This document shows positions 5,977-60,120 of a stretch of DNA of 64,000 bases, piece after piece (the stretch's first letter is position 1; each line of letters begins with the position of its first letter). The translations under genes and the position numbers were made by a program. The notes under the pieces are model-generated. The model made no database searches and was not told where the DNA came from. It saw nothing but the letters and a program-made list of their open reading frames with translations. Location: NCBI GenBank assembly GCA_964016885.1, contig OZ024740.1, positions 30,814,001 through 30,878,000 on the forward strand. Direction: 5' to 3'. This DNA comes from Eledone cirrhosa. Lineage: Eukaryota.

Positions 5977-8900
5977 TATGATGACCATATCTCCATGCGG
6001 CCCTGCCTATAATGAGCCATATCTCATGCGGCCCTGCCTATAATGATCCATATCTCATACGGCCCTGCCTATAATGAGCCATATCTCATGCGGCCCTGCC
6101 TATAATGAGCCATATCTCATGCGGCCTGGCCTATAATGAGCCATATCTCATGCGGCCTGGCCTATGATGAGCCATATCTCATGCGGCCCGGCCTATAATG
6201 AGCCATATCTCATGTGGCCTGGCCTATGATGAGCCATATCTCATGCGGCCCTGCTTATGATGAGCCATATCTCATGCGGCCCTGCCTATGATGAGCCATA
6301 TCTCATGCGGCCTGGCCTATGATGAGCCATATCTCATGTGGCCTGGCCTATGATGAGCCATATCTCATGCGGCCTGGTCTATGATGAGCCATATCTCATG
6401 CGGCCTGTCCTATAATGAGCCATATCTCATGCGGCCCTGCTTATGATGAGCCATATCTCATGCGGCCTGGCCTATGATGAGCCATATATCATGCGGCCCT
6501 GCCTATGATGAGCCATATCTCATGAGGCCTGGCCTATGATGAGCCATATCTCATGAGGCCTGGCCTATGATGAGCCATATCTCATGCGGCCCTGCTTATG
6601 ATGAGCCATATCTCATGCGGTCCTGTCTATAATGAGCCATATCTCATGCGGCCCTGCCTATGATGAGCCATATCTCATGCGGCCTGGCCTATGATGAGCC
6701 ATATCTCATGCGGCCTGGCCTATGATGAGCCATATCTCATGCGGCCCTGCTTATGATGAGCCATATCTCATGCGGCCCTGCCTATGATGAGCCATATCTC
6801 ATGCAGCCTGGCCTATGATGAGCCATATCTCATGCGGCCTGGCCTATGATGAGCCATATCTCATGCGGCCTGTCCTATGATGAGCCATATCTCATGCGGC
6901 CTGGCCTATGATGAGCCATATCGCATGTGGCCTGGCCTATGATAAGCCATATCTCATGCGGCCTGGCCTATGATGAGCCATATCTCATGCGGCTCAGCTT
7001 ATGATGAGCCATATCATGCGGCCTGGCCTATGATGAGCCATATCATGCGGCCTGGCCTATGATGAGCCATATCTCATGCGGCCTGGCCTATGATGAGCCA
7101 TATCTCATGCGGCCCTGCCTATAATGAGCCATATCTCATGCGGCCTGGCCTATGATGAGCCATATCTCATGCGCCCTGCCTATGATGAGCCATATCTCAT
7201 GCGGCCCTGCCTATAATGAGCCATATCGCATGTGGCCTGGCCTATGATAAGCCATATCTCATGCGGCCCTGCCTATGATGAGCCATATCTCATGCGGCCC
7301 TGCCTATAATGAGCCATATCGCATGTGGCCTGGCCTATGATAAGCCATATCTCATGCGGCCCTGCCTATGATGAGCCATATCTCATGCGGCCCTGCCTAT
7401 AATGAGCCATATCGCATGTGGCCTGGCCTATGATAAGCCATATCTCATGCGGCCCTGCCTATGATGAGCCATATCTCATGCGGCCCTGCCTATAATGAGC
7501 CATATCTCATGCGGCCCTGCCTATGATGAGCTATATCTCATGCGTCCCTGCCTATAATGAGCCATATCTCATGCGGCCTGGCCTATGATGAGCCATATCT
7601 CATGCGGCCCTGCCTATGATGAGCCCTATCTCATGCGGCCCTGCCTATGATGAGCCATATCTCATGCGGCCTGGCCTATGATGAGCCATAGCTCATGCGG
7701 CCCTGCCTATGATGAGCCATATCTCATGCGGCCTGGCCTATGATGAGCCATATCTCATGCGGCCTGGCCTATGATGAGCCATATCTCATGCGGCCCTGCC
7801 TATGATGAGCCATATCTCATGCGGCCTGGCCTATGATGAGCCATATCTCATGCGGCCCTGCCTATAATGAGCCATATCTCATGCGGCCTGGCCTATGATG
7901 AGCCATATCTCATGCGGCCTGTCCTATGATGAGCCATATCTCATGCGGCCTGGCCTATGATGAGCCATATCTCATGCTGCCTGGTTTATGATGAGCCATA
8001 TCTCATGCGGCCCTGCCTATGATGAGCCATATCTCATGCGGCCTGGCCTATGATGAGCCATATCTCATGCGGCCTGGCCTATGATGAGCCATATCTCATG
8101 CGGCCTGGCCTATGATGAGCCATATCTCATGCGGCCTGGCCTATAATGAGCCATATCTCATGCGGCCTGGCCTATGATGAGCCATATCTCATGCGGCCCT
8201 GCCTATGATGAGCCATATCTCATGCGGCCCTGCCTATGATGAGCCATATCTCATGCGGCCCTGCCTATGATGAGCCATATCTCATGCGGCCCTGCCTATG
8301 ATAAGCCATATCTCATGCGGCCCTGCCTATGATGAGCCATATCTCATGCGGCCCTGCCTATGATGAGCCATATCTCATGCGGCCCTGCCTATGATGAGCC
8401 ATATCTCATGCGGCCCTGCCTATGATGAGCCATATCTCATGCGGCCCTGCCTATGATGAGCCATATCTCATGCGGCCCTGCCTATGATGAGCCATATCTC
8501 ATGCGGCCCTGCCTATGATAAGCCATATCTCATGCGGCCTGGCCTATGATGAGCCATATCTCATGCGGCCCTGCCTATGATAAGCCATATCTCATGCGGC
8601 CCTGCCTATGATGAGCCATATCTCATGCGGCCCTGCCTATGATGAGCCATATCTCATGCGGCCCTGCCTATGATGAGCCATATCTCATGCGGCCTGGCCT
8701 ATGATGAGCCATATCATGCGGCCTGGCCTATGATGAGCCATATCATGCGGCCTGGCCTATGATGAGCCATATCTCATGCGGCCCTGCCTATGATGAGCCA
8801 TATCTCATGCGGCCTGGCCTATGATGAGCCATATCTCATGCGGCCCTGCCTATGATGAGCCATATCTCATGCGGCCTGGCCTATGATGAGCCATATCTCA

Positions 8901-9578
8901 TGCGGCCTGGCCTATGATGAGCCATATCTCATGCGGCCCTGCCTATGATGAGCCATATCTCATGCGGCCTGGCCTATGATGAGCCATATCTCATGCGGCC
9001 CTGCCTATGATGAGCCATATCTCATGCGGCCCTGCCTATGATGAGCCATATCTCATGCGGCCTGGCCTATGATGAGCCATATCATGCGGCCTGGCCTATG
9101 ATGAGCCATATCTCATGCGGCCCTGCCTATGATGAGCCATATCTCATGCGGCCCTGCCTATGATGAGCCATATCTCATGCTGCCTGGCCTAGGATGAGCC
9201 ATAGCTCATGCGGCCTGGCCTATGATGAGCCATATCATGCGGCCTGGCCTATGATGAGCCATATCTCATGCGGCCCTGCCTATGATGAGCCATATCTCAT
9301 GCGGCCTGGCCTATGATGAGCCATATCTCATGCGGCCCTGCCTATGATGAGCCATATCTCATGCGGCCTGGCCTATGATGAGCCATATCTCATGCGGCCC
9401 TGCCTATGATGAGCCATATCTCATGCGGCCCTGCCTATGATGAGCCATATCTCATGCGGCCTGGCCTATGATGAGCCATATCATGCGGCCTGGCCTATGA
9501 TGAGCCATATCTCATGCGGCCCTGCCTATGATGAGCCATATCTCATGCGGCCCTGCCTATGATGAGCCATATCTCATG
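5977..9578. repeat. 31-bp minisatellite, about 116 copies
   Basis: Unit TATGATGAGCCATATCTCATGCGGCC(CT/TG)GCC with period 31; occasional 29-bp variants lack a TC. Confidence 0.97.
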
Positions 9579-16693: not shown

Positions 16694-17406
16694 AGTGGAA
16701 GCTTAGTCAAATCGAAGCTTTGGCTGTGGCCAAGCTAACGACCTACAATTAGGAATGAGCAGCAAAGCACTCAATAAGGTTGCAGGCTTTAGAGTAATAA
16801 CATACGTATAGGCACCTTGATAAATTGAAAATTGCGGCAGGTAGACCTAGCCACACAATACCAAAAACAACGAAAAAACTAATCAGGTTTATATATATAT
16901 TTATTAAAATAACAGATTAAAGTTTAAGCAAAGAATCGCTGCTTTCACCTTTAACGGAATCTTCTGAAATAAAAATTTGCTCTAGGGTTCTTATATATTT
17001 GATATATATTTATCCTTATTGATTTGGATTTTAGTCTTCACATTTGTTATTATTACTATATATATATAATAAATCAAGAAAGAAGAGTGACATGGGTTGC
17101 TATACAATAAGGGCTTTATTCACATTGCTGAAAATTGTAGTGTAAAATAAAGTTAAATAAAAGTCAAATGATTAAAATTTAGCTTCGTTTATTATATATA
17201 TGATATATATATATATGATATATATATATGATATATATATGATATATATATATGATATATATATGATATATATATATGATATATATATATATATATGACT
17301 CCAGTTCCTCAGTGAATTAACAACCCAACAAGGAACTGGGCATAGATTATTGACAATATTATACACCTAAACAACATATGTACTTGTCTATACCATACTA
17401 ATTCAA

Positions 17407-17461
17407 ACTGCCTGAAGAGGTCACAGCCAAAGATAGCTGTCACTGAAATATATATAGCAGT
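17407..17461 (+). ncRNA. Type I hammerhead ribozyme motif (Penelope-like family, flank of the array)
   Basis: Stem I ACTGC/GCAGT; core CTGAAGA; stem II GGTCACAGC..GCTGTCACT; GAAA; stem III with self-complementary (TA) loop; AUA triplet. Confidence 0.7.
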
Positions 17462-17564
17462 AATAAACGAAGCTAAATTTTAATCATTTGACTTTTATTT
17501 AACTTTATTTTATATATATATGAAAGTATAGAAATTATTGTGAGCGTGAAGCCAACAGTATTTC

Positions 17565-17608
<44 letters not shown>

Positions 17609-17613
<5 letters not shown>

Positions 17614-20600
17614 AATTAAGTTAAAGATGTACATCCATATATGTATACTGAAATACTAGTATGTATATGAATACACACACGTATACATATGTAGATGTAC
17701 CAAGTTTTTTTCACTGGTCACTTTACTGTGAGTGGCCAGCTATTCTGTATGTAAACACACAGACAAACCGGTTTTTAGAGTCATACTGGTTTTTGAGGAA
17801 ACACCTTTCCTCTATTCTCCAGAAAGCCAGACAAGGAATATTGAACTAGTTTCGTTGTTGTTACAACTCATCAGCAATATTTACCTATCTTCCGGCCTCT
17901 CTAGAGAATCGTAAAAGCACATATCGTTATATGCTTTTTCTATGAAAATTAGTAGTGGGCAGACTAATCCGCACAGAGTGTGAGTAAGTACCGGTTCAAC
18001 GGAGACGATAAAAACAAATAACGAAACGAAATTAAATTTCGTTTCGTTTGTAACTCACTTTTGTATGACTGACGCTTAAACAATTAAGTTAAAGATGTAC
18101 ATCCATATATGTATACTGAAATACTAGTATGTATATGAATACACACACGTATACATATGTAGATGTACCAAGTTTTTTTCACTGGTCACTTTACTGTGAG
18201 TGGCCAGCTATTCTGTATGTAAACACACAGACAAACCGGTTTTTAGAGTCATACTGGTTTTTGAGGAAACACCTTTCCTCTATTCTCCAGAAAGCCAGAC
18301 AAGGAATATTGAACTAGTTTCGTTGTTGTTACAACTCATCAGCAATATTTACCTATCTTCCGGCCTCTCTAGAGAATCGTAAAAGCACATATCGTTATAT
18401 GCTTTTTCTATGAAAATTAGTAGTGGGCAGACTAATCCGCACAGAGTGTGAGTAAGTACCGGTTCAACGGAGACGATAAAAACAAATAACGAAACGAAAT
18501 TAAATTTCGTTTCGTTTGTAACTCACTTTTGTATGACTGACGCTTAAACAATTAAGTTAAAGATGTACATCCATATATGTATACTGAAATACTAGTATGT
18601 ATATGAATACACACACGTATACATATGTAGATGTACCAAGTTTTTTTCACTGGTCACTTTACTGTGAGTGGCCAGCTATTCTGTATGTAAACACACAGAC
18701 AAACCGGTTTTTAGAGTCATACTGGTTTTTGAGGAAACACCTTTCCTCTATTCTCCAGAAAGCCAGACAAGGAATATTGAACTAGTTTCGTTGTTGTTAC
18801 AACTCATCAGCAATATTTACCTATCTTCCGGCCTCTCTAGAGAATCGTAAAAGCACATATCGTTATATGCTTTTTCTATGAAAATTAGTAGTGGGCAGAC
18901 TAATCCGCACAGAGTGTGAGTAAGTACCGGTTCAACGGAGACGATAAAAACAAATAACGAAACGAAATTAAATTTCGTTTCGTTTGTAACTCACTTTTGT
19001 ATGACTGACGCTTAAACAATTAAGTTAAAGATGTACATCCATATATGTATACTGAAATACTAGTATGTATATGAATACACACACGTATACATATGTAGAT
19101 GTACCAAGTTTTTTTCACTGGTCACTTTACTGTGAGTGGCCAGCTATTCTGTATGTAAACACACAGACAAACCGGTTTTTAGAGTCATACTGGTTTTTGA
19201 GGAAACACCTTTCCTCTATTCTCCAGAAAGCCAGACAAGGAATATTGAACTAGTTTCGTTGTTGTTACAACTCATCAGCAATATTTACCTATCTTCCGGC
19301 CTCTCTAGAGAATCGTAAAAGCACATATCGTTATATGCTTTTTCTATGAAAATTAGTAGTGGGCAGACTAATCCGCACAGAGTGTGAGTAAGTACCGGTT
19401 CAACGGAGACGATAAAAACAAATAACGAAACGAAATTAAATTTCGTTTCGTTTGTAACTCACTTTTGTATGACTGACGCTTAAACAATTAAGTTAAAGAT
19501 GTACATCCATATATGTATACTGAAATACTAGTATGTATATGAATACACACACGTATACATATGTAGATGTACCAAGTTTTTTTCACTGGTCACTTTACTG
19601 TGAGTGGCCAGCTATTCTGTATGTAAACACACAGACAAACCGGTTTTTAGAGTCATACTGGTTTTTGAGGAAACACCTTTCCTCTATTCTCCAGAAAGCC
19701 AGACAAGGAATATTGAACTAGTTTCGTTGTTGTTACAACTCATCAGCAATATTTACCTATCTTCCGGCCTCTCTAGAGAATCGTAAAAGCACATATCGTT
19801 ATATGCTTTTTCTATGAAAATTAGTAGTGGGCAGACTAATCCGCACAGAGTGTGAGTAAGTACCGGTTCAACGGAGACGATAAAAACAAATAACGAAACG
19901 AAATTAAATTTCGTTTCGTTTGTAACTCACTTTTGTATGACTGACGCTTAAACAATTAAGTTAAAGATGTACATCCATATATGTATACTGAAATACTAGT
20001 ATGTATATGAATACACACACGTATACATATGTAGATGTACCAAGTTTTTTTCACTGGTCACTTTACTGTGAGTGGCCAGCTATTCTGTATGTAAACACAC
20101 AGACAAACCGGTTTTTAGAGTCATACTGGTTTTTGAGGAAACACCTTTCCTCTATTCTCCAGAAAGCCAGACAAGGAATATTGAACTAGTTTCGTTGTTG
20201 TTACAACTCATCAGCAATATTTACCTATCTTCCGGCCTCTCTAGAGAATCGTAAAAGCACATATCGTTATATGCTTTTTCTATGAAAATTAGTAGTGGGC
20301 AGACTAATCCGCACAGAGTGTGAGTAAGTACCGGTTCAACGGAGACGATAAAAACAAATAACGAAACGAAATTAAATTTCGTTTCGTTTGTAACTCACTT
20401 TTGTATGACTGACGCTTAAACAATTAAGTTAAAGATGTACATCCATATATGTATACTGAAATACTAGTATGTATATGAATACACACACGTATACATATGT
20501 AGATGTACCAAGTTTTTTTCACTGGTCACTTTACTGTGAGTGGCCAGCTATTCTGTATGTAAACACACAGACAAACCGGTTTTTAGAGTCATACTGGTTT

Positions 20601-20815
20601 TTGAGGAAACACCTTTCCTCTATTCTCCAGAAAGCCAGACAAGGAATATTGAACTAGTTTCGTTGTTGTTACAACTCATCAGCAATATTTACCTATCTTC
20701 CGGCCTCTCTAGAGAATCGTAAAAGCACATATCGTTATATGCTTTTTCTATGAAAATTAGTAGTGGGCAGACTAATCCGCACAGAGTGTGAGTAAGTACC
20801 GGTTCAACGGAGACG
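17609..20815 (-). repeat. Left arm of the 468-bp hammerhead-containing tandem array (about 6.85 units)
   Basis: Exact 468-bp period, with identical ORF-track translations every 468 bp; hammerhead on minus strand at 17837-17881 and every 468 bp after (7 copies). Confidence 0.97.
17837..17881 (-). ncRNA. Type I hammerhead ribozyme (first of 7 minus-strand copies)
   Basis: Reverse complement reads AATATTG-CTGATGA-GTTGT-AACA-ACAAC-GAAA-CTAG-TT-CAATATT. Confidence 0.88.
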
Positions 20816-23800
20816 CTGTGCGGATTAGTCTGCCCACTACTAATTTTCATAGAAAAAGCATATAACGATATGTGCTTTTACGATTCTCTAGAGAGGCCGG
20901 AAGATAGGTAAATATTGCTGATGAGTTGTAACAACAACGAAACTAGTTCAATATTCCTTGTCTGGCTTTCTGGAGAATAGAGGAAAGGTGTTTCCTCAAA
21001 AACCAGTATGACTCTAAAAACCGGTTTGTCTGTGTGTTTACATACAGAATAGCTGGCCACTCACAGTAAAGTGACCAGTGAAAAAAACTTGGTACATCTA
21101 CATATGTATACGTGTGTGTATTCATATACATACTAGTATTTCAGTATACATATATGGATGTACATCTTTAACTTAATTGTTTAAGCGTCAGTCATACAAA
21201 AGTGAGTTACAAACGAAACGAAATTTAATTTCGTTTCGTTATTTGTTTTTATCGTCTCCGTTGAACCGGTACTTACTCACACTCTGTGCGGATTAGTCTG
21301 CCCACTACTAATTTTCATAGAAAAAGCATATAACGATATGTGCTTTTACGATTCTCTAGAGAGGCCGGAAGATAGGTAAATATTGCTGATGAGTTGTAAC
21401 AACAACGAAACTAGTTCAATATTCCTTGTCTGGCTTTCTGGAGAATAGAGGAAAGGTGTTTCCTCAAAAACCAGTATGACTCTAAAAACCGGTTTGTCTG
21501 TGTGTTTACATACAGAATAGCTGGCCACTCACAGTAAAGTGACCAGTGAAAAAAACTTGGTACATCTACATATGTATACGTGTGTGTATTCATATACATA
21601 CTAGTATTTCAGTATACATATATGGATGTACATCTTTAACTTAATTGTTTAAGCGTCAGTCATACAAAAGTGAGTTACAAACGAAACGAAATTTAATTTC
21701 GTTTCGTTATTTGTTTTTATCGTCTCCGTTGAACCGGTACTTACTCACACTCTGTGCGGATTAGTCTGCCCACTACTAATTTTCATAGAAAAAGCATATA
21801 ACGATATGTGCTTTTACGATTCTCTAGAGAGGCCGGAAGATAGGTAAATATTGCTGATGAGTTGTAACAACAACGAAACTAGTTCAATATTCCTTGTCTG
21901 GCTTTCTGGAGAATAGAGGAAAGGTGTTTCCTCAAAAACCAGTATGACTCTAAAAACCGGTTTGTCTGTGTGTTTACATACAGAATAGCTGGCCACTCAC
22001 AGTAAAGTGACCAGTGAAAAAAACTTGGTACATCTACATATGTATACGTGTGTGTATTCATATACATACTAGTATTTCAGTATACATATATGGATGTACA
22101 TCTTTAACTTAATTGTTTAAGCGTCAGTCATACAAAAGTGAGTTACAAACGAAACGAAATTTAATTTCGTTTCGTTATTTGTTTTTATCGTCTCCGTTGA
22201 ACCGGTACTTACTCACACTCTGTGCGGATTAGTCTGCCCACTACTAATTTTCATAGAAAAAGCATATAACGATATGTGCTTTTACGATTCTCTAGAGAGG
22301 CCGGAAGATAGGTAAATATTGCTGATGAGTTGTAACAACAACGAAACTAGTTCAATATTCCTTGTCTGGCTTTCTGGAGAATAGAGGAAAGGTGTTTCCT
22401 CAAAAACCAGTATGACTCTAAAAACCGGTTTGTCTGTGTGTTTACATACAGAATAGCTGGCCACTCACAGTAAAGTGACCAGTGAAAAAAACTTGGTACA
22501 TCTACATATGTATACGTGTGTGTATTCATATACATACTAGTATTTCAGTATACATATATGGATGTACATCTTTAACTTAATTGTTTAAGCGTCAGTCATA
22601 CAAAAGTGAGTTACAAACGAAACGAAATTTAATTTCGTTTCGTTATTTGTTTTTATCGTCTCCGTTGAACCGGTACTTACTCACACTCTGTGCGGATTAG
22701 TCTGCCCACTACTAATTTTCATAGAAAAAGCATATAACGATATGTGCTTTTACGATTCTCTAGAGAGGCCGGAAGATAGGTAAATATTGCTGATGAGTTG
22801 TAACAACAACGAAACTAGTTCAATATTCCTTGTCTGGCTTTCTGGAGAATAGAGGAAAGGTGTTTCCTCAAAAACCAGTATGACTCTAAAAACCGGTTTG
22901 TCTGTGTGTTTACATACAGAATAGCTGGCCACTCACAGTAAAGTGACCAGTGAAAAAAACTTGGTACATCTACATATGTATACGTGTGTGTATTCATATA
23001 CATACTAGTATTTCAGTATACATATATGGATGTACATCTTTAACTTAATTGTTTAAGCGTCAGTCATACAAAAGTGAGTTACAAACGAAACGAAATTTAA
23101 TTTCGTTTCGTTATTTGTTTTTATCGTCTCCGTTGAACCGGTACTTACTCACACTCTGTGCGGATTAGTCTGCCCACTACTAATTTTCATAGAAAAAGCA
23201 TATAACGATATGTGCTTTTACGATTCTCTAGAGAGGCCGGAAGATAGGTAAATATTGCTGATGAGTTGTAACAACAACGAAACTAGTTCAATATTCCTTG
23301 TCTGGCTTTCTGGAGAATAGAGGAAAGGTGTTTCCTCAAAAACCAGTATGACTCTAAAAACCGGTTTGTCTGTGTGTTTACATACAGAATAGCTGGCCAC
23401 TCACAGTAAAGTGACCAGTGAAAAAAACTTGGTACATCTACATATGTATACGTGTGTGTATTCATATACATACTAGTATTTCAGTATACATATATGGATG
23501 TACATCTTTAACTTAATTGTTTAAGCGTCAGTCATACAAAAGTGAGTTACAAACGAAACGAAATTTAATTTCGTTTCGTTATTTGTTTTTATCGTCTCCG
23601 TTGAACCGGTACTTACTCACACTCTGTGCGGATTAGTCTGCCCACTACTAATTTTCATAGAAAAAGCATATAACGATATGTGCTTTTACGATTCTCTAGA
23701 GAGGCCGGAAGATAGGTAAATATTGCTGATGAGTTGTAACAACAACGAAACTAGTTCAATATTCCTTGTCTGGCTTTCTGGAGAATAGAGGAAAGGTGTT

Positions 23801-26800
23801 TCCTCAAAAACCAGTATGACTCTAAAAACCGGTTTGTCTGTGTGTTTACATACAGAATAGCTGGCCACTCACAGTAAAGTGACCAGTGAAAAAAACTTGG
23901 TACATCTACATATGTATACGTGTGTGTATTCATATACATACTAGTATTTCAGTATACATATATGGATGTACATCTTTAACTTAATTGTTTAAGCGTCAGT
24001 CATACAAAAGTGAGTTACAAACGAAACGAAATTTAATTTCGTTTCGTTATTTGTTTTTATCGTCTCCGTTGAACCGGTACTTACTCACACTCTGTGCGGA
24101 TTAGTCTGCCCACTACTAATTTTCATAGAAAAAGCATATAACGATATGTGCTTTTACGATTCTCTAGAGAGGCCGGAAGATAGGTAAATATTGCTGATGA
24201 GTTGTAACAACAACGAAACTAGTTCAATATTCCTTGTCTGGCTTTCTGGAGAATAGAGGAAAGGTGTTTCCTCAAAAACCAGTATGACTCTAAAAACCGG
24301 TTTGTCTGTGTGTTTACATACAGAATAGCTGGCCACTCACAGTAAAGTGACCAGTGAAAAAAACTTGGTACATCTACATATGTATACGTGTGTGTATTCA
24401 TATACATACTAGTATTTCAGTATACATATATGGATGTACATCTTTAACTTAATTGTTTAAGCGTCAGTCATACAAAAGTGAGTTACAAACGAAACGAAAT
24501 TTAATTTCGTTTCGTTATTTGTTTTTATCGTCTCCGTTGAACCGGTACTTACTCACACTCTGTGCGGATTAGTCTGCCCACTACTAATTTTCATAGAAAA
24601 AGCATATAACGATATGTGCTTTTACGATTCTCTAGAGAGGCCGGAAGATAGGTAAATATTGCTGATGAGTTGTAACAACAACGAAACTAGTTCAATATTC
24701 CTTGTCTGGCTTTCTGGAGAATAGAGGAAAGGTGTTTCCTCAAAAACCAGTATGACTCTAAAAACCGGTTTGTCTGTGTGTTTACATACAGAATAGCTGG
24801 CCACTCACAGTAAAGTGACCAGTGAAAAAAACTTGGTACATCTACATATGTATACGTGTGTGTATTCATATACATACTAGTATTTCAGTATACATATATG
24901 GATGTACATCTTTAACTTAATTGTTTAAGCGTCAGTCATACAAAAGTGAGTTACAAACGAAACGAAATTTAATTTCGTTTCGTTATTTGTTTTTATCGTC
25001 TCCGTTGAACCGGTACTTACTCACACTCTGTGCGGATTAGTCTGCCCACTACTAATTTTCATAGAAAAAGCATATAACGATATGTGCTTTTACGATTCTC
25101 TAGAGAGGCCGGAAGATAGGTAAATATTGCTGATGAGTTGTAACAACAACGAAACTAGTTCAATATTCCTTGTCTGGCTTTCTGGAGAATAGAGGAAAGG
25201 TGTTTCCTCAAAAACCAGTATGACTCTAAAAACCGGTTTGTCTGTGTGTTTACATACAGAATAGCTGGCCACTCACAGTAAAGTGACCAGTGAAAAAAAC
25301 TTGGTACATCTACATATGTATACGTGTGTGTATTCATATACATACTAGTATTTCAGTATACATATATGGATGTACATCTTTAACTTAATTGTTTAAGCGT
25401 CAGTCATACAAAAGTGAGTTACAAACGAAACGAAATTTAATTTCGTTTCGTTATTTGTTTTTATCGTCTCCGTTGAACCGGTACTTACTCACACTCTGTG
25501 CGGATTAGTCTGCCCACTACTAATTTTCATAGAAAAAGCATATAACGATATGTGCTTTTACGATTCTCTAGAGAGGCCGGAAGATAGGTAAATATTGCTG
25601 ATGAGTTGTAACAACAACGAAACTAGTTCAATATTCCTTGTCTGGCTTTCTGGAGAATAGAGGAAAGGTGTTTCCTCAAAAACCAGTATGACTCTAAAAA
25701 CCGGTTTGTCTGTGTGTTTACATACAGAATAGCTGGCCACTCACAGTAAAGTGACCAGTGAAAAAAACTTGGTACATCTACATATGTATACGTGTGTGTA
25801 TTCATATACATACTAGTATTTCAGTATACATATATGGATGTACATCTTTAACTTAATTGTTTAAGCGTCAGTCATACAAAAGTGAGTTACAAACGAAACG
25901 AAATTTAATTTCGTTTCGTTATTTGTTTTTATCGTCTCCGTTGAACCGGTACTTACTCACACTCTGTGCGGATTAGTCTGCCCACTACTAATTTTCATAG
26001 AAAAAGCATATAACGATATGTGCTTTTACGATTCTCTAGAGAGGCCGGAAGATAGGTAAATATTGCTGATGAGTTGTAACAACAACGAAACTAGTTCAAT
26101 ATTCCTTGTCTGGCTTTCTGGAGAATAGAGGAAAGGTGTTTCCTCAAAAACCAGTATGACTCTAAAAACCGGTTTGTCTGTGTGTTTACATACAGAATAG
26201 CTGGCCACTCACAGTAAAGTGACCAGTGAAAAAAACTTGGTACATCTACATATGTATACGTGTGTGTATTCATATACATACTAGTATTTCAGTATACATA
26301 TATGGATGTACATCTTTAACTTAATTGTTTAAGCGTCAGTCATACAAAAGTGAGTTACAAACGAAACGAAATTTAATTTCGTTTCGTTATTTGTTTTTAT
26401 CGTCTCCGTTGAACCGGTACTTACTCACACTCTGTGCGGATTAGTCTGCCCACTACTAATTTTCATAGAAAAAGCATATAACGATATGTGCTTTTACGAT
26501 TCTCTAGAGAGGCCGGAAGATAGGTAAATATTGCTGATGAGTTGTAACAACAACGAAACTAGTTCAATATTCCTTGTCTGGCTTTCTGGAGAATAGAGGA
26601 AAGGTGTTTCCTCAAAAACCAGTATGACTCTAAAAACCGGTTTGTCTGTGTGTTTACATACAGAATAGCTGGCCACTCACAGTAAAGTGACCAGTGAAAA
26701 AAACTTGGTACATCTACATATGTATACGTGTGTGTATTCATATACATACTAGTATTTCAGTATACATATATGGATGTACATCTTTAACTTAATTGTTTAA

Positions 26801-26861
26801 GCGTCAGTCATACAAAAGTGAGTTACAAACGAAACGAAATTTAATTTCGTTTCGTTATTTG

Positions 26862-26868
<7 letters not shown>
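20816..26868 (+). repeat. Right arm of the 468-bp hammerhead-containing tandem array (about 12.9 units)
   Basis: Reverse complement of the left-arm unit; hammerhead on plus strand at 20911-20955 and every 468 bp after (13 copies). Confidence 0.97.
20911..20955 (+). ncRNA. Type I hammerhead ribozyme (first of 13 plus-strand copies)
   Basis: Stem I AATATTG/CAATATT (7 bp); CUGAUGA 20918-20924; stem II GTTGT/ACAAC with AACA loop; GAAA 20939-20942; short palindromic stem III (AACTAGTT); GUU triplet, predicted cut after 20948. Confidence 0.88.
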
Positions 26869-26910
<42 letters not shown>

Positions 26911-26955
26911 AAGTTAAATAAAAAGTCAAATGATTAAAATTTAGCTTCGTTTATT

Positions 26956-27010
26956 ACTGCTATATATATTTCAGTGACAGCCATCTTTGGCTGTGACCTC
27001 TTCAGGCAGT
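26956..27010 (-). ncRNA. Type I hammerhead motif, inverted copy of 17407-17461
   Basis: Same sequence as 17407-17461 with one substitution next to loop 2; lies in an inverted copy (26903-27125) of 17293-17510. Confidence 0.7.
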
Positions 27011-28079
27011 TTGAATTAGTATGGTATAGACAAGTACATATGTTGTTGAGGTGTATAATATTGTCAATACTCTGATATGCCCAGTTGCTGGTTGGGTTGT
27101 TATTTCACTGAGGAACTGGAATCATATGAATTCAAACAAATGAATTTCAGTGTCAAAGGTCCTCTTCTCCTCTCATTGGTCAGTTATTAGAACATTCCTC
27201 ATTCTAAGTGTTGTTATTGTTGGAGTTAGCTTAAAAAATTGATAAAATGGTAGAAGGGACAAGGTGTTAAAGGAACAAAATAACAAAAAAAGTGTCAAAC
27301 TTCCCATTGGTCAGTTCTGAGAGCATTCCTCAGTCAGAAGTCTATAGAATTCTTTCTGGGATGAGGCTCCCTGTAGTGTTTTTGTTTGCTACAAATACTT
27401 TTTCCCATTTCCCACTCTACTACCCTAAGTATTAAGTACTCTGGTACGTTATGGTCCATCTGGTTCCTTACCACATTTCCTTTGTTATATATATATAGAT
27501 ATATATATATACGTGAAAAAATGGGGAGAAGAATACTGCTGGTTGCACATGGATAACATGTAATAAAATAATATAAGTCCCTCATCAGTGATTTGCCGAC
27601 GATCATAGATATTTCATTGCATTAAAAATCATATACCTCACGTCGGTGCAATAATAACTAAATTAAGTTATTAGGACAATTAAAGCGCGTAAAGCGAGTG
27701 AGACGAGATAACAACAAAGAGGATAGCTAACCGTAGAAAGAAGGAGACAAGCTTCATAGTTATTCTGTTAGCGTAAGCTAGGTGAATATATGAGCGCTTA
27801 GAAAATAGACCTTTCAGCAGCGAATTCAAATGTGAGTGAGAGAGAAAATGATTTCGTCGCGAACGGGGTGAAGTGAGAAGAGGAGAAACAGTGAGTGAGT
27901 GAGTGAGTGGAAGTGTGAGGAAGAGTTAACGGACATGACAGAGGGGGCGAAAGAAAGTAGGAGAAACAGAGGGAGCAGTAAGAGAGAGAGAGAAAAAAAC
28001 AGAAGCGCAGTATAGGTAAATATACGTGAAAAAATGGGGAGAAGAATACTGCTAGTTGCACATGGATAACATGTAATAA

Positions 28080-45558: not shown

Positions 45559-46298
45559 TGATGCAAAACCAATAATGAATTCACGAAAGACAAGTTGTGA
45601 CTTTAGGGTACCCTACCCAGCAAAATTTACGAGAACTTCCAGCGAAACACACTCACAGATAAACTTTTAAAAAAAGGTAAAAAGCCCTTAATTCCTGGTG
45701 GAGTCGGAGGGACGTCATCCCTCTCAAGGTCGATTACTTCCAGAGAGTGAGGGGGTGATAATCGAACCCAGATTTTGGATAGGCAGAGAATAGGAAAATT
45801 AATGCCATGCATATTTTTTGTTGGTATCCTTAAAGAGTGTAATATTGACAACAACAAACAGAGCCGATCACAACATTCTCACAGGACATGAGAATGAGAC
45901 CTAGTCAGAATAAGTGTTTAAAACGCCCACAACGTTCAAAACATTATATCGATATGCTTGTATCGATATAATCGACTTTCTCTTCTCCTCAAATTGATGA
46001 TTTTGCGCCTAAATTAGAAACAATACTTTCAAGTCGATAAAATAAGTACCTGTCACGTGTTTCTTCAAAATTAATGATCTCATCCATTGTAGAAAGATAA
46101 CAGAGTCGATATGCCTAGCCATAATCAAACTAACAGTTTTACATGATAATGTATCTAAACTGGTATTTGTTATTGAAATATAAAATAAATAAACAATAAA
46201 TACTGAATTATATATAATCAGAAACCTGTAGAAGTATTTTATAGTGTTATTTGGGTTCATGCTCTATGAGAGCATGAACCCAAACGTGGTCGTTGTCA

Positions 46299-46858
46299 TC
46301 ACGTGGGCTTTTGAGGCACAAACTTGACATTTGTATAAGAAACGTGTTCGACAAAATCACGTGAGCTTTTGGGGCCCAAACTTGGCATTTGTATCAGAAA
46401 TGTGATCGATATCACACGTCAGCTTTTGGGGCCCAAACTTGTCATTTGTATCAGAAACGTGATCGATATCACACGTCAGCTTTTGGGGCACAAACTTGGC
46501 ATTTGTATCAGAAACGTGATCGATATCACACGTCAGCTTTTGGGGCACAAACTTGTCATTTGTATCAGAAACGTGATCGATATCACACGTCAGCTTTTGG
46601 GGCACAAACTTGGCATTTGTATCAGAAACGTGATCGATATCACACGTCAGCTTATGGGGCACAAACTTGGCATTTGTATCAGAAACGTGATCGATATCAC
46701 ACGTCAGCTTTTGGGGCACAAACTTGGCATTTGTATCAGAAACGTGATCGATATCACACGTCAGCTTTTGGGGCACAAACTTGTCATTTGTATAAGAAAC
46801 GTGATCGATATCATCATGTGACCTTTTGGAGCCAAAACTTGACATTTGTATCAGAAAC
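46299..46858. repeat. 57-bp minisatellite, about 10 copies
   Basis: Unit CACGTCAGCTTTTGGGGCACAAACTTGGCATTTGTATCAGAAACGTGATCGATATCA; 19-aa periodicity in the ORF track. Confidence 0.95.
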
Positions 46859-47169
46859 GAAAATACATAAAATAACACAATACTACTTACTTCTACGGCT
46901 TTCTGGTTTAGAAAAGAAATGTTTATTACTTCTACAGATAAATAACGTTCAAATTGTTTTTAATTCTTACAGAATGAAAATATAAACACATATAATACAA
47001 TTAATACTTCATAGTTGCACAAACAACATTACAAATAGTTTGCAATTCCTTCAGAATGGAAATATAAATAGAGCATATAAATAATTTTACAGTAGAATAA
47101 CATAAATATGTTTTAAATATATACATAAATAACATTACAAATGCCTCGGTAACACTACAAAGGATGATA

Positions 47170-53602: not shown

Positions 53603-54321
53603 TATGTAAGGTAAAACCTTAACCACAAAAATACAATGGTACATATAGAGTAATGTAAATGTTATGTGAGGTAAAGCCTTTACCATGAAAATACAATGGT
53701 ACATATAGAGTAATGTAAATGTTATGTGAGGTAAAGCCTTTACCATGAAAATACAATAGTAAATATAGAGTAATGTAAATGTTATGTGAGGTAAAACCTT
53801 AACCACAAAAATACAATGGTACATATAGAGTAATGTAAATGTTATGTGAGGTAAAGCCTTTACCATGAAAATACAATGGTACATATAGAGTAATGTAAAT
53901 GTTATGTGAGGTAAAGCCTTTACCATGAAAATACAATGGTACATATAGAGTAATGTAAATGTTATGTGAAGTAAAGCCTTTACCATGAAAATACAATAGT
54001 AAATATAGAGTAATGTAAATGTTATGTGAGGTAAAGCCTTTACCATGAAAATACAATGGTACATATAGAGTAATGTAAATGTTATGTGAGGTAAAGCCTT
54101 TACCATGAAAATACAATGGTACATATAGAGTAATGTAAATGTTATGTGAGGTAAAGCCTTTACCATGAAAATACAATGGTACATATAGAGTAATGTAAAT
54201 GTTATGTGAGATAAAGCCTTTACCATGAAAATACAATGGTACATATAGAGTAATGTAAATGTTATGTGAGGTAAAGCCTTTACCATGAAAATACAATGGT
54301 ACATATAGAGTAATGTAAATG
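53603..54321. repeat. 60-bp minisatellite, about 12 copies
   Basis: Consecutive 60-nt lines are nearly identical; the unit contains hairpin GGTAAA-GCC-TTTACC. Confidence 0.97.
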
Positions 54322-54985
54322 CTAAAGGGTTAAGAAGATTTATACATTTCTGCATCAAAACATGGAATTTCAACAGCTCTCAATAACCGATGTAATTATT
54401 ACACTTGTACATATATGACAGGGATGGAGAAAGGGTTAGAAAATAGAGAGAATGTTTTGATGGAAGTGGGAGTGAGAGAGAGAAAAGTTTTGATGAGAAG
54501 AGGAAAGAAAGAGAGAGATGCATTTTAAAGAGAGGAAAATAAGAGAGACACATGGTAGATATTTTAGACTTATTTTAGGAAAAAAGTAGCATCTTCGACA
54601 CCAGGAAATGCGGTATATATTAATATCTTATGGGGGAAAAAGGATCAAAGGTATTATGCCAAATAAACTCCTGCTGACATGTAGCAAAAAAATTATCAGA
54701 TGTCCCTCAAATTGTTTTATATTTTCCTGACCATGTCCCCTCAATTTATGGGGGTGGGGTCAGCGCTTGCTCCCTCGTAGTCATGTTGAATTCACTTTCA
54801 TATGTAATGTACCAATGTTGGACATTAGTTTTATGATAACTGATTTCAAATTATATGCAGGAACATTTTTTGTTCTCTGGGTGTTCAAACAGTGACCAAT
54901 AAATTGAGGATTTACACATGCACACAGACACAGAACAGTACACAGTACACAAACACAAACATACCGTACACAGTACATTAATACA

Positions 54986-55383
54986 AACTGGCGTAGCAAC
55001 ATCATCATTAACTGCTACAAGGGTAAAGGAGATGCTCTAGATAGAGGAAACTATAGAGGCATTAAATTAGTTGACCAGGTCACGAAGGTCACAGAAAGAG
55101 TTATAGCGCAACTAATCAGAGAACGAATTGATCTAGATGAAATGCAGTTTGGGTTTGTGTCAGGTAAAAGTACCACAGACGCTCTTTTCCTTGTACGACA
55201 ACTACAGGAGAAGTACCTAGCTAAAAGTAAACCCCTCTACTTAGCTTTTGTAGACCTGGAGAAAGCTTTTGACAGAGTCCCCTGCTCCATTATCTGGTGG
55301 GCTCTTAGAAAACTAGGTGTAGATAAATGGCTTGTGAGACCTATACAAGCCATGTATAAAGAAACAGTCAGTAAGGTTAGAAT
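54986..55383 (+). mobile_element. Older RTE LINE, part 1 (RT domain, 5'-truncated)
   Basis: CYKGKGDALDRGNYRGIKL...QFGF...FVDLEKAFDRV...SKVRI; interrupted at 55384. Confidence 0.9.
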
Positions 55384-58300
55384 CCATCATCATCATCATC
55401 ATCATCACCGTTTTACGTCCGTTCTTCCACGCTAGCATGGGTTAGACGGGTTGTCCTGTTGTGGGCAGTGTCTGGTCGGCTGACCATGCCTTGCTCATAC
55501 AGGAACTGATCTGGCTTGATTTCTACAGCTGGATGCCCTTCCTAACACCAACCTCATTTACAGTGAGTGCTGGGTGCTTTTTCGTGGCGCCTACACGTCC
55601 ACTTTACAGTGTGGGCTGGGTGCTTTTTTGCCGTGGCACCTCCACGACCACCTTGCGGTGGGGGGGGGGGGCATATTGTTTATATGCTTCAGCATGTACC
55701 CATGGGAGGTTGGGTACCCTGTATTACTGCGTGACGCCAGAAGTCACGGTCGTGTGTCATTGACTTTGAGAGGTGTAGTTGGGTAAGGTCGGCTTTTATC
55801 ACCTCATCCCAAGTTATCTTGGGTCTCCCCACTCCGCGGTTTCCATCAACTTCTAGTGCTCTGCACCTTTTTATGCAGCTGTCATCCTTCATACGCATCA
55901 CATGTCCATACCAGCGTAACCGCCTCTCCTGCACGCAGCATTTGATTCCTCTTATGCTCAGTCTCTCTCTCAATTCCTTTATGCTTTGTCGTTCACGTAT
56001 ATTACTGTTACACATCCATCGGAGCATGCAGGCTTCGTTTCTCTCTAATCTACGTAAGTCTTCCACCTTCAGTGCCCAGGTCTCACTACCATGCAACATC
56101 GCTGTTCGGATACACGCATCATACAGTCTGCCTTTCATTCTGAGGGAGAAGCCTTTTGCAGCTAGCAGTGGTAGTAGTTCCCTAAACTTCTTCCATCCCG
56201 TTCTTACCCTAGTTATTGTACTTTCTGAGCACCCACCTCCGTTGCTAATTCGGTCACCTAGGTAGCAGAAGCTGTCTACTGTTTCTACAGGGCCCTCCCA
56301 GAGATTGGTGGTACTTGTTTCCTGTGGCTGTTTGCTTGCTGTTTCAGCACAGCTGCTGCATGTGAATCCTACATTCTTAATTAAGCTTCCTGAGATCCCG
56401 CTACATCTCTTGTGTACCCATTGTTTGCATTTGGGGCAGAGAATGGAGTTCCTACCTACACCTTTCCTACATACTGAGCAAGGCCATTGCTTCCAGGTTT
56501 GGAATTTATTCTCTAGTTCTACCATAGATTCAGCTATGAGTGCGAGGTCATCAGCATACAGGAGTTCCCATGGGCATCCGGTCTTAAACTCCTCCGTTAT
56601 TGCCTGCAGGACTATGATGAACAGGAGAGGGCTAAGAACAGAGCCCTGGTGGACCCCAACCTGTACGCTAAATTCCTCGCTATACTCATTGCCAATCCTA
56701 ACTTTGCTGACTGCTCCCCTATACATGGCTTGTACCGCTTTCACAAGCCATTCATCTACTCCTAGTTTTCTAAGAGCCCACCAGATTACTGCACGTGGAA
56801 CTCTGTCAAAGGCTTTCTCAAGGTCGACAAATGCCAAGTAGAGTGGCTTACTTTTAGCTAGGTACTTTTCCTGTAATTGCCTCACAAGGAAGAGGGCATC
56901 AGTGGTGCCTTTCCCTGGTACAAACCCAAATTGCATCTCGTCTATATTCACCCGGTCCCTAATCAGCTGTGCTATAACTCTTTCTGTTACTTTCATGACC
57001 TGGTCCATCAACTTTATACCTCTATAGTTTCCTCTATCTAGTGCATCGCCTTTACCTTTGTAGCAGTTGACAATGATGCTACTGCACCAATCTTTTGGTA
57101 TGGCCCCCTCTAGTATTACCTGGTTAACGATACGTGTGGTTATAGTGTGACCTACAGACCCAGATGCCTTCAGCATCTCGGCAGCTATACCCGATGGACC
57201 GGTTGCCTTCCCTATCTTCATATCTCTGATTGCCATACTTACTACGCTGCTGCTGACTTGTACTGCTGGTCCCTCTATAGGGTCTACGTGGGGTAGGGTC
57301 TCTTCTTCCCATGCATTCTCCTCATTTAGTAATCTATCATAATGACTCTTCCATGCATCTTTCTTCTCAGCACTTGTGAGGGCAAGCTCACCTTTATCAT
57401 TCCGGATACACTTCTCTCCAATGACATCACAACTATCTCTGACACACTGCCTCGCAATCTTGAATACCTCCTGTTTCTGGTCCTCACGTTGTAAAACATG
57501 CTTGAATTTTCTATCCTCTGCTTCCCTCCTAGCTAAGTATACTTGTCGCCTAGCTTCCCTCTTGGTCTCTATGTAATGTACCCTGCTCCCCCCGTTCTTC
57601 CATTCTTTCCATGCCTGTCTCTTGGCCTTGACTGCTTCATCTACCTTATTGTTCCACCACCAAGTCACTCTCCTCCTGCTTGAGGTCTTACTCCAGCCAC
57701 AAACCTCATCCGTCGCCTCTAGTAAGTTATTTTTTAGGAACTCCCAGTTCTCTTCTACGTTAAATGTCTCTATCTGTTCTTCTTTACTGTCGTAGGCGTT
57801 GAGTAAAATATCTTTAAATCTGTTACTGGTTGAGGGGACTTTCAGCTTCCAGATCTTTCTTCTCCAGGTTGGCCTCTGTTTCAGGGCTCGTCTAGTTCTG
57901 ACCGTGAGGTCGCTGACAACTAAGCTATGTTGGGATGTACATTCCTCACTAGGGAAGGCTTTTGTGTTTACGACCGTCCATCTGTCACGTCCTCTGATGA
58001 GGATAAAATCTAACTGACTAGAGTGCTCCCCTGATCTATAGGTGATCAGGTGGTTGTCGGGTTTTTTAAAGTTTGTGTTACATATCGACATGTCATTGGC
58101 GTCGCAGAATTCTAGAAGTCTGAATCCTTCCTCATTCCTTGTGCCAACTCCATGGCCTCCATATACTCTATTGAAGCCGTCGCAGTGTTTACCTACGTGT
58201 CCGTTAAAATCTCCTGCAATGATTAGGAAGTCCTTGTCGTCTGTTAGAGCAGTAGTGTGTATTAGGGACTTGTAAAACCTATCCTTAAGTTCGTCTGGCA

Positions 58301-58888
58301 GCCCCGATTGGGGTGCGTAAGCTGATATTATTGTGGTAATTGTCTTATTCAGGACTAGTCTGAGTTTAATGATTCTTGCATTTACCCTGTACACTGAGAT
58401 TACTTTATCTACCCACTTGTCAGCTAATAGTATACCTACACCACCCATCCCATCGTCATTTCCCACCCAGAAAAATTTGTAGCGCTGGCTTTTTCCTACA
58501 AGGACTCTAGCAGACCCTCCTCTCCATCTAGTCTCTTGCACGCAGCATACATCAACTTCCTTTCGCTCTAGCATTTCTACGATTTCTCCTGCTCTTCCTT
58601 TCATTGAGCCTACATTGATGGTACCAACTCGGAGTTTTGGGCATTTGTCGACACTCGTAGGGGAGGGTCTCTGGGTTGGCGCTTCACGTGGGTGCTTGGT
58701 AGCTCGCAGATTCATATTTCATCTATTGATTCAGAGTTGCTCGTGTATTCCCAGCTCATCCATCCATAACGGTGGGAAAATTGAGGGCTAGAAGAACAGT
58801 GGTGGTGGGGTAATGGCAGGGTGTGTTGGGATGCACCAGAGGAGGAGAGAGTTAGTTAGGCAGGTAGTAGCAGCAGCAGTGGAAATGT
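55384..58888 (-). mobile_element. Near full-length RTE-clade LINE
   Basis: Single long ORF, 3' UTR and (GAT)n tail at 55385-55407; GAAT at both junctions (55380-55383, 58889-58892). Confidence 0.93.
55689..58715 (-). CDS. RTE LINE ORF: AP-like endonuclease, reverse transcriptase and PHD-like Cys/His finger (1008 aa)
   Basis: APE motifs TINV, VQETRW, GDFNGH, LDFIL, SQH; RT motifs QFGF, FVDLEKAFDRV, GVHQGSVLSP, YADD; CSVC...CPKC..WVHKRC...CSSC; lacks about 31 aa after YADD relative to the neighbouring copy. Confidence 0.9.
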   Translation of the reverse strand: MNLRATKHPREAPTQRPSPTSVDKCPKLRVGTINVGSMKGRAGEIVEMLERKEVDVCCVQETRWRGGSARVLVGKSQRYKFFWVGNDDGMGGVGILLADKWVDKVISVYRVNARIIKLRLVLNKTITTIISAYAPQSGLPDELKDRFYKSLIHTTALTDDKDFLIIAGDFNGHVGKHCDGFNRVYGGHGVGTRNEEGFRLLEFCDANDMSICNTNFKKPDNHLITYRSGEHSSQLDFILIRGRDRWTVVNTKAFPSEECTSQHSLVVSDLTVRTRRALKQRPTWRRKIWKLKVPSTSNRFKDILLNAYDSKEEQIETFNVEENWEFLKNNLLEATDEVCGWSKTSSRRRVTWWWNNKVDEAVKAKRQAWKEWKNGGSRVHYIETKREARRQVYLARREAEDRKFKHVLQREDQKQEVFKIARQCVRDSCDVIGEKCIRNDKGELALTSAEKKDAWKSHYDRLLNEENAWEEETLPHVDPIEGPAVQVSSSVVSMAIRDMKIGKATGPSGIAAEMLKASGSVGHTITTRIVNQVILEGAIPKDWCSSIIVNCYKGKGDALDRGNYRGIKLMDQVMKVTERVIAQLIRDRVNIDEMQFGFVPGKGTTDALFLVRQLQEKYLAKSKPLYLAFVDLEKAFDRVPRAVIWWALRKLGVDEWLVKAVQAMYRGAVSKVRIGNEYSEEFSVQVGVHQGSVLSPLLFIIVLQAITEEFKTGCPWELLYADDLALIAESMVELENKFQTWKQWPCSVCRKGVGRNSILCPKCKQWVHKRCSGISGSLIKNVGFTCSSCAETASKQPQETSTTNLWEGPVETVDSFCYLGDRISNGGGCSESTITRVRTGWKKFRELLPLLAAKGFSLRMKGRLYDACIRTAMLHGSETWALKVEDLRRLERNEACMLRWMCNSNIRERQSIKELRERLSIRGIKCCVQERRLRWYGHVMRMKDDSCIKRCRALEVDGNRGVGRPKITWDEVIKADLTQLHLSKSMTHDRDFWRHAVIQGTQPPMGTC

Positions 58889-60120
58889 GAATTAACAATG
58901 AATATTGTGAAGAATTTAGTGTAAAAGTTGGTGTTCATCAAGGCTCTGTCCTTAGCCCCCTCCTATTTATTATTGCCCTTCGGGCTATAACAGAGGGGTT
59001 CAAGACCGGCTGCCCATGGGAACTTCTCTATGCAGATGATCTAACTCTCATAGTTGAATATATGGCTAAACTCGAGAAGAAATTCCAAACATTGAAGCAT
59101 GGCCTAGAATCAATAGGCCTTAAAGTTAACTTGTCTAAGACTAAAGTTCTAGTTTGTAGAAAGGAAAATAGGGCACAGGTGCCCTCAGGGAAATGGCCAT
59201 GCTCAGTGTGTAGGAAAGGAGTAGGCAGAAATTCCATTTTATGCAAAGTATGGGTACATAAAAGATGTAGTGGGATCACAGGTAAACTATCTAAGAACGT
59301 AGACTTCATATGTGGCCGATGCTCAGGTGCAATAGGTAGCAAGTGTCCACAGGATACTAGCTCCTTCTATTGTCCAAATGGTTCTATAGAAATAGTGGAC
59401 ACTTTCCGTTACCTGGATGACGAAATCAGCAGTGGTGGAGGGTGTTCTGAAAGTACAGTAGCCAGAGTCAGAACAGGATGGAAAAAGTTCAGAGAGCTTA
59501 TACCGCTGTTGGCCACAAAAGGTTTCTCTCTAAAAATAAAAGGCAGAATGTATGATGCTTGTATACGAACAGCAATGCTACATGGCAGTGAGACATGGGC
59601 ATTGCATGCAGAGGACCTGCGTAGACTGGAAAGGAACGAAGCATGCATGCTCCGTTGGATGTGTAATAGTAATATACGTGAACGGCAAAGTATAAATGAA
59701 CTAAGTGAGAAATTATGAATAAGAGGGATCAGATGCTGTTTACTCGAGAGAAGACTTTGTTGGTATGGCCACATGATGCGCATGAAAGACGACAGCTGTA
59801 TAAAAAAGTGCAGGGCGATCAAAATTGATGGTAGTTACGGAGTAGGTAGACCCAGAAAAAGCTGGGATGATCTGATAAATTCCGACCTTACACACTTGCA
59901 CCTCTCTAAGACAATGTCACTGGACCGAGATCTTTGGCGCTACACAGTAATACAGAAGACCCACCTTGCTTATATACGAAGTAAAACCTACAGTCAGTAG
60001 GCACCACTTAACCAAATATACACCCCAATCCACTACCCCTAACCTATCCTCCCACTCCCACCAACACCACCCTCTCTCTGTAAAGTTGGCACCACAATGC
60101 TAGCATGGAAGATGGATGTA
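58889..60120 (+). mobile_element. Older RTE LINE, part 2
   Basis: Resumes INNEYCEEFSVKVGVHQGSVLSP...YADD...WPCSVCRKGVG; premature stop at 59718. Confidence 0.9.

Follow-up and report, generated by a model that had tools for sequence, protein, structure and literature searches.

The window analysed here, a stretch of 64,000 nucleotides from Eledone cirrhosa (contig OZ024740.1, positions 30,814,001 to 30,878,000), contains a tandem array of a 468-bp unit with one hammerhead ribozyme per unit, which is certain as observed. A preliminary description had reported an exact 468-bp period without differences between units, 20 hammerhead copies (7 minus and 13 plus) and no credible open reading frame, and all three statements were borne out. 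Tandem Repeats Finder reported the 468-bp period at 17609-20815 (6.9 copies) and at 20816-26868 (12.9 copies), the matches being 100% in both, and in an exact test both arms were mismatch-free substrings of an endless concatemer of one unit. The CTGATGA core was counted 7 times on the minus and 13 times on the plus strand, the core being intact in 20/20 units, and no ORF of 120 aa or longer was found in the array. As assembled, the array holds 19.8 exact units in two head-to-head arms (6.85 minus, 12.93 plus) within (TA)n, and the inversion junction at 20815/20816 is blunt. All unit positions are numbered from window position 20949, the base after the predicted cut. The features are as follows:

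11752 (minus) and 28552 (plus): 3' ends of P1-like Penelope-like elements (PLEs) with U3-A8 hammerheads, ending in (TA)n
17296..17567, plus: 3' end of an older hammerhead-like repeat; it stops at the (TA)n run that also borders the array
17568..17608, no strand: left (TA)n target run, adjoining the outer end of the inverted arm
17609..20815, minus: inverted arm, 6.85 exact units; primed 3' end 17609 is unit 235 (proximal site), 5' end is unit 305
20816..26868, plus: direct arm, 12.93 exact units; primed 3' end 26868 is unit 304 (distal site), 5' end is unit 336
20900..20971, plus: type I hammerhead, the first of those on the plus strand; its core is at 20918 and the cut is predicted after 20948, at a GUU site; recurs every 468 bp
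20949..21416, plus: single unit from cut site to cut site, a predicted 468-nt monomer or circle with a multibranched fold
26800..26868, plus: 69-nt "tail" between the priming sites (unit 236-304), at this array end only
26869..26905, no strand: right (TA)n target run, adjoining the outer end of the direct arm
26906..27124, minus: inverted copy, 95% identical, of the older hammerhead-like repeat end, to the right of the array
55689..58718, minus: 1,008-aa frame with AP endonuclease, RT and PHD finger, between two plus-strand RT fragments

The 69-nt tail contains a 13-bp hairpin (at about 26828-26856) and is nearly invariant across subfamilies. The inner end of the minus arm (window 20815) is unit 305, the base next to the start site of the other arm; this may be a coincidence or may reflect a collision with the second primer. 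The array had been described as one concatemer. It does represent one insertion event, and a single recent event is supported; structurally it consists of two separately primed arms that end at two fixed sites.

Several other elements lie in the window. The older hammerhead-like repeat ends (also 17143-17201) flank the array tail to tail and were seen in 9 other loci. At 27420-27500 there is a short, abundant element that has inverted arms and a long hairpin and ends in (TA)n; it also occurs in loci L055, L057, L062, L111, L135 and L161, and is possibly a further PLE dependent. In locus L035 a sequence related to this element forms the partner arm of a retrozyme. The region 54908-59718 reads as nested LINEs. 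Minisatellites of 31, 57, 60 and 22 bp and a hAT transposase fragment are found at 5977-9578, 46282-46859, 53603-54321, 60143-64000 and 2127-2831.

Ribozyme, fold and genomic distribution

The hammerhead is a complete type I ribozyme, as had been described: stem I of 7 bp pairs 20911-20917 with 20949-20955 and is extended beyond a bulge, stem II has 5 bp, stem III is palindromic (6 nt) and the predicted cleavage site is GUU. The proposed check against the Rfam hammerhead models gave a divided result: no match in the whole window reached the gathering threshold, and in E-value mode Hammerhead_HH9 ranked top at 20900-20971 with 37.7 bits (gathering 52; E 9.5e-8). The predicted fold of the unit has an energy of -155.4 kcal/mol (z -9.5), and 0/100 shuffles were as stable; as a circle the sense strand folds at -151 vs. 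-124 kcal/mol for the antisense strand. Covariation was counted in 29 natural units, 27 from family A (the family of the window unit) and 2 from family B, a homologous family with a 472-bp unit and its own hammerhead, with the structure taken from the window unit. In this alignment 97% of cells pair in the window-derived structure. Two-sided changes were found at 20 pairs vs. 6.0 in shuffles (0/500) and 2-7 in slid controls, a count that is inflated by the treatment of related sequences as independent and that comes partly from the 2 family-B rows. Stems I and II of the hammerhead are among the covarying pairs. No variation was seen in the catalytic core of the 29/29 aligned units, and the tail region is nearly invariant within family A. 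The covariation supports the view that the RNA structure is under selection. Array length did not differ between units with a GUU or a GUC site (medians 1,092 vs. 1,281 bp; n = 27 and 24; p 0.55), the lengths being bounded by the 4-kb loci.

Copies elsewhere, for which a genome search of the unit had been proposed, were readily found. In the 3.0-Gb host genome the unit gave at least 264 matches on many contigs, and the junction of unit 304 with a TA repeat gave 1,950 exact matches genome-wide (reversed control, 0). The 230-235 junction pattern, specific to young subfamilies, gave 525 partly overlapping matches. There are at least 1,950 insertion ends in the genome and the family comprises ~2,000 copies, whose ends are internal positions of the unit and not LTRs. 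In 58 sampled loci the units are 86-100% identical to the window unit; the retrozyme length per 4-kb locus had a median of about 1.1 kb and exceeded 3 kb in 7/58, so that the array in the window is unusually long. With a non-coding tandem unit, intact hammerhead cores, dispersed copies, no LTR architecture and a stable fold, the family is almost certainly an animal non-LTR retrozyme, as had been proposed. The remark that the unit is longer than most of these elements also holds, since 468 nt lies slightly above the 150-450 bp stated in the part of Cervera 2020 (PMC7229834) cited here; it falls inside the 51-972 bp mentioned in Li et al. 2026 (bioRxiv 10.64898/2026.07.22.740005). The 304/(TA)n junction is also present as a loose end in contigs of public run X1. 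Those contigs, which drop rare variants, are without the three diagnostic letters of the window haplotype, hinting that this haplotype may not be common to the source of the run. In runs X4, X5 and X6, coded as three other organisms, near-complete units were seen at low depth, and these could be from related species, diet or contamination. Joints that go back 468 in run contigs (4/6 listed runs) fit tandem DNA as well as circles.

The term "viroid-like" had been offered as well. A compact, strongly folded, non-coding unit with a hammerhead would suit an infectious viroid-like RNA, replicating from RNA to RNA, of which copies had been integrated, as would the 73-75% of the unit's words found in the runs coded as three other organisms, but these runs are of low depth. 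The hammerhead was seen in one polarity only (the core motif tracks arm orientation), the fold is branched and not rod-like, and graded genomic subfamilies together with sister family B speak for long genomic residence. The term found no support in these observations, and an infectious origin is extremely improbable.

Paired insertion ends and a Penelope-like helper

Insertion anatomy was examined in two sets of loci: 31 picked by unit identity, and 59 (one duplicate) selected by their 304 end in the order in which they occur in the genome, which kept them within the first 87 Mb of contig C1. In the set picked by identity, 19/31 loci have two long arms that end at 304 and 230-235, all head to head; in the others the partner arm is very short or foreign, there is a gap, or a single arm is present. 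All two-arm insertions of this set are head to head with a 5'-truncated inverted arm, and the inner (5') arm ends are scattered. Among the end-picked loci, a partner arm ending at 230-235 was found in 39/59 (35 long, 4 short); 8 others adjoin TA directly, 4 leave the locus, 3 are joined to a PLE and 5 to something else. Use of one site twice was seen in no pure family-A insertion sampled, and no pure retrozyme insertion had 304 at both ends; the two exceptions are chimeric, L047 with the proximal site twice (families A and B) and L159 with the distal site twice. Flanks of the (TA)n type adjoin nearly all primed ends in the 31 loci (in the 59-locus set the 304 flank was a selection criterion). 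An insertion lying outside (TA)n shows a target duplication of 8 bp, and at each of its primed ends target and template pair over 4-5 nt.

Two end sites about 69 nt apart are the "tail plus inversion" signature of PLEs. In the portion of Craig 2021 (PMC8557442) considered here, an inverted copy, a 30-40 bp tail at one end and a microsatellite bias are given as PLE marks absent from LINE insertion, and, according to the corresponding part of Frangieh 2024 (PMC11167929), the PLE tail in vitro corresponds to the interval that separates two internal RT start sites, both strands being cut and extended. Because the array consists of two separately primed arms with two fixed end sites, its helper would be a PLE, and PLE-driven two-primer reverse transcription and mobilisation of the retrozyme is very likely on these sequence features. 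The family is a further animal non-LTR retrozyme acting as a non-autonomous PLE dependent. In titles and abstract openings of the open-access papers listed, tail-and-inversion ends or PLE joints were reported for no hammerhead retrozyme; Repbase and subscription journals, outside this scope, may already have the family catalogued.

Two loci show a change of sequence type. In one arm at L047:5317-6907 family A gives way to family B, at 10 nt of the tail hairpin that the two families have in common. At L031:2265-2818 the innermost 1.2 units are of an older haplotype (about 20 differences, GUC) and the other ten are of the window haplotype, which may reflect a template switch or recombination.

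Unequal crossover or consensus collapse could also give a homogeneous array with no RNA step. Polishing could exaggerate the identity of 20 copies, and older arrays have been reshaped at the DNA level. Such a DNA satellite or assembly artefact would have to account for about 2,000 ends that are dispersed but fall at a single fixed base, two-site pairing, a target duplication and a covarying RNA structure, and the 304/(TA)n junction recurs in the run X1 contigs. We consider this reading largely refuted and very improbable.

The helper RT had been expected to lie elsewhere, and this is supported: the window has only APE-type LINE RTs and PLE-type 3' ends without an ORF. A LINE RT of the window is unlikely as the helper, the insertion marks being PLE-type. 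A first look genome-wide gave 10,596 GIY-YIG candidates. The PLE copies examined encode an RT along with a C-terminal GIY-YIG domain preceded by a CX4CxxC motif, and by this zinc-finger motif alone we assign them to the Neptune/Nematis type, as outlined in the cited part of Craig 2021 (PMC8557442). The PLE ends in this genome carry hammerheads, some with the U3-A8 core (a form reported, in the cited part, by Cervera 2014), and stop in (TA)n at two sites separated by 40-68 nt: P1 at +76/+143, P3 at about +122/+177, and P5 with a tail of about 40 nt.

Retrozymes fused to PLE sequence without a TA spacer were found in 3/59 end-picked loci. In L129 the retrozyme continues into the P5 ORF, from mid-RT to the P5 proximal end (95% identical to P5 copies); in L159 it is joined to the P5 3' end (99%) and in L114 to the end of a P2-like ORF. 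These loci carry older retrozyme subfamilies (87-94% to the window unit), and the joints could be deletions between neighbouring insertions, that is, later events. Since more than 50 of the 150 P5 copies scored tie at 431.7 bits and many are in 784-aa open frames, P5 is young and recently active. As P5 both joins retrozymes (L129, L159) and is young with open frames, it is the best helper candidate, and on the sequence it is probably a helper. Among the matches listed in the search, P5 also occurs in tandem, with five copies at a period of about 3.9 kb and pairs at 4.7-4.8 kb (C2:359.516-359.533 Mb; C5:17.089-17.095 Mb; C3:191.807-191.813 Mb). By blastn in 50 PLE loci (of the >10,000 GIY-YIG candidates) the unit showed no homology to PLE ends, the matches being only neighbouring retrozyme copies and TA-rich stretches, and the priming region showed no similarity to the ends of P1, P2, P3 and P5 (five PLE ends; z -1.0 to 0.6). 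Homology between the unit and the pLTRs was not found in this sample; the high local scores were traced to a TA/CA-rich hairpin at unit 132-220.

Template of reverse transcription

The preliminary description found the array to fit rolling-circle reverse transcription. This origin is plausible, given that arms cross the cut site and that haplotypes are array-wide, and it has a real rival in an uncleaved multimer combined with DNA-level expansion. The cut site is crossed by 52/63 arms, and 3/112 inner ends lie within 4 nt of it vs. 1.9 expected, without a pile-up. Because both starts are 235-304 nt downstream of the cut, the template of the longer arms would be continuous through the cut site. 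A PLE RT that copies linear self-cleaved monomers serially, with a jump from each monomer's 5' end to the 3' end of the one that follows, would read through in another way, and switches between RNAs are visible in the haplotype change of L031, the passage from family A to B in L047 and the retrozyme-PLE joints. Yet 20/20 cut-site passages in the window are seamless, the variants of the 31 loci include no cut-site indels, most arrays are of a single haplotype despite the many that coexist, and the switches that were seen lie away from the cut site. Such template jumping is improbable.

Variant patterns bear on the choice between a circle and a multimer. In L040, L044, L046, L048 and L057 each full unit, whichever arm it belongs to, carries the private variants of that array, and divergence is 0.16-0.26% within arrays and up to 14% between arrays. 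The window haplotype differs from the common one by three changes and is found in 69 units in 7 insertions, with 17.6 exact copies in an arm on contig C18. Because haplotypes are array-wide and the window haplotype occupies 69 units, repeated passage through one unit together with fast amplification is indicated, and a circle is a plausible and natural source of such repeated single-unit passage. The three changes of the window haplotype all turn A-U into G-U pairs in one hairpin; A-to-I editing was rejected as a general source of haplotypes, as there is no A>G excess in shared changes (A>G 10, T>C 12, G>A 13). An argument that the window array is longer than any donor fails, the C18 arm being longer.

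Other variants point to templates of more than one unit. In L044 and L147 minority variants lie in the same unit, counted from the primed end, of both arms; since in-register variants are impossible from a monomeric circle, a multi-unit template is likely for these two loci. For L044, fold-back synthesis of the second arm was rejected because the variant common to both arms keeps its register with the primed ends instead of being mirrored about the junction. A general same-register similarity between arms was not seen (0.26% vs. 0.17%). Variants recurring in one arm only were found in an array on contig C3 (27-copy arm), L062, L061 and L042, indicating later DNA-level duplication or conversion. 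The arms of L120 differ at six sites, as if two RNAs or subfamilies had been used.

On such data the same PLE machinery and priming sites could have used an uncleaved linear multimer, with long donors and DNA expansion providing the copy number and the ribozyme trimming RNA or being a passenger. The in-register variants of L044 and L147, the arm-restricted variants of the 27-copy C3 arm and the same-haplotype donor on C18, which is longer than the window arms, fit a multimer. The ribozyme also looks weak (2-bp stem III, GUU), and in the cited part of Frangieh 2024 (PMC11167929) hammerhead cleavage was dispensable for the Poseidon PLE in vitro, unprocessed RNA being the main substrate. From a linear multimer, daughter arms would never exceed the donor and new variants would be a minority, yet haplotypes are fixed across arrays and in both arms, and the youngest one reaches 17.6 exact copies without mutation. 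The 5'-end pile-up at the cut site expected of partly cleaved multimers is missing, and the catalytic core has stayed invariant (29/29 units). We hold the linear multimer as main template to be possible, though rather doubtful, and lean slightly towards a circular RNA template as the main route. Circles as templates were proposed by Cervera 2014 and Cervera 2020 (PMC7229834), in the parts cited; the available portion of Li 2026 (bioRxiv 10.64898/2026.07.22.740005) gives cleavage in 1/9 Xenopus dimers and favours local amplification.

The fixed paired ends, head-to-head arms, (TA)n targets and PLE joints can be read directly from the assembly. In the mechanism that we propose, the PLE enzyme would nick both strands of an AT-rich target, as PLE biochemistry suggests; reverse transcription would be primed from one nick at unit 304 and from the second nick at 230-235, with 2-5 nt of pairing as an aid. 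The two cDNAs would pass the ribozyme site, up to many units, and stop at scattered positions, and their joining would give two inverted arms with a tail at one end. With less assurance, the template would usually be a circle, made from tandem transcripts cut by dimeric hammerheads and then ligated, round which the RT would roll. Multimers, linear or circular, would act as template at least sometimes, and older arrays would be reshaped further as DNA. Taken as a whole chain, one very recent insertion of a non-autonomous retrozyme, copied by a PLE RT/GIY-YIG protein via a circle, is on balance our favoured account of the array. A fuller version, in which a dimer of the PLE enzyme would roll round a self-cleaved, ligated 468-nt circle from two fixed starts and write up to 12 kb of inverted concatemer per event, with the circle recognised by structure and not by sequence and with retrozyme RNA and the enzyme's own mRNA carried into the same insertion, is put forward tentatively, with a little less than even confidence.

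The way in which animal retrozymes reach DNA, and the question whether the hammerheads of PLEs produce circular templates, are debated between Cervera 2014/2020, Frangieh 2024 and Li 2026, as far as the cited parts go. The present family offers mapped start sites, a candidate helper with intact frames and mutation-free young insertions, and the variant patterns of its thousands of older copies can separate circular from linear templates. The insertion-end fingerprints of PLE enzymes give a direct test of RNA-element copying into DNA. If true, the rolling-circle reading would directly support the life cycle that has been proposed for retrozymes and would come with a named helper that is still intact. 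As a mechanism for writing into genomes, an RT able to turn a small RNA into kilobases of concatemer at (TA)n would be of interest too.

Comparison with known systems

Statements on published elements in this section refer to the cited parts of each source. Like animal non-LTR retrozymes (PMC7229834; bioRxiv 10.64898/2026.07.22.740005), the family has non-coding tandem units of a few hundred bp with low GC, one type I hammerhead per unit with a short palindromic helix III, a strongly folded monomer, and dispersed arrays in a genome that also has PLEs. It differs in that its insertion ends are mapped here, with two fixed sites of priming, a tail of 69 nt, arms lying head to head, (TA)n targets and direct PLE joints. 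In Cervera 2020 (PMC7229834) and Li 2026 (bioRxiv 10.64898/2026.07.22.740005) the link between retrozymes and PLEs rests on shared ribozymes, co-occurrence and pLTR homology; the last was not found for this family. Circles have been shown for published retrozymes, whereas the present family is described here from genomic sequence.

The insertions resemble those of EN+ PLEs of the Neptune/Nematis type (PMC8557442; PMC11167929) in their partial tandems, inverted 5'-truncated arm, tail at one end, two internal RT starts downstream of the hammerhead and AT-rich or microsatellite targets. The retrozyme differs from these PLEs in having no ORF and up to 27 units per arm, and its tail is 69 nt long compared with 30-40 nt in EN+ PLEs and about 40-68 nt in the PLEs of this genome. 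Chlamys MRC1 (Craig 2021, PMC8557442) is likewise a non-autonomous PLE dependent with multicopy insertions, which have pLTRs and are head-to-tail; Chlamys elements share 3' sequence with their autonomous partner and most are without a hammerhead, whereas the retrozyme has a hammerhead and no detectable sequence in common with a PLE. Newt satellite 2 also consists of tandem hammerhead repeats with a weak helix III favouring dimer cleavage, and its activity and transcripts have been shown (per PMC7229834), while for the retrozyme the ribozyme is read from DNA.

The hammerhead core is the canonical C3-G8 in the retrozyme and U3-A8 in P1 and P5. Schistosome hammerhead repeats are tandem too, with a weak helix III that favours dimer cleavage, and their activity and transcripts have been shown. 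Hammerhead viroids and viroid-like satellite RNAs are small, non-coding, folded RNAs with a hammerhead; unlike these, the family described here gave no sign of infectivity or of RNA-RNA replication and is a genomic element with PLE insertion marks and a ribozyme seen in one polarity.
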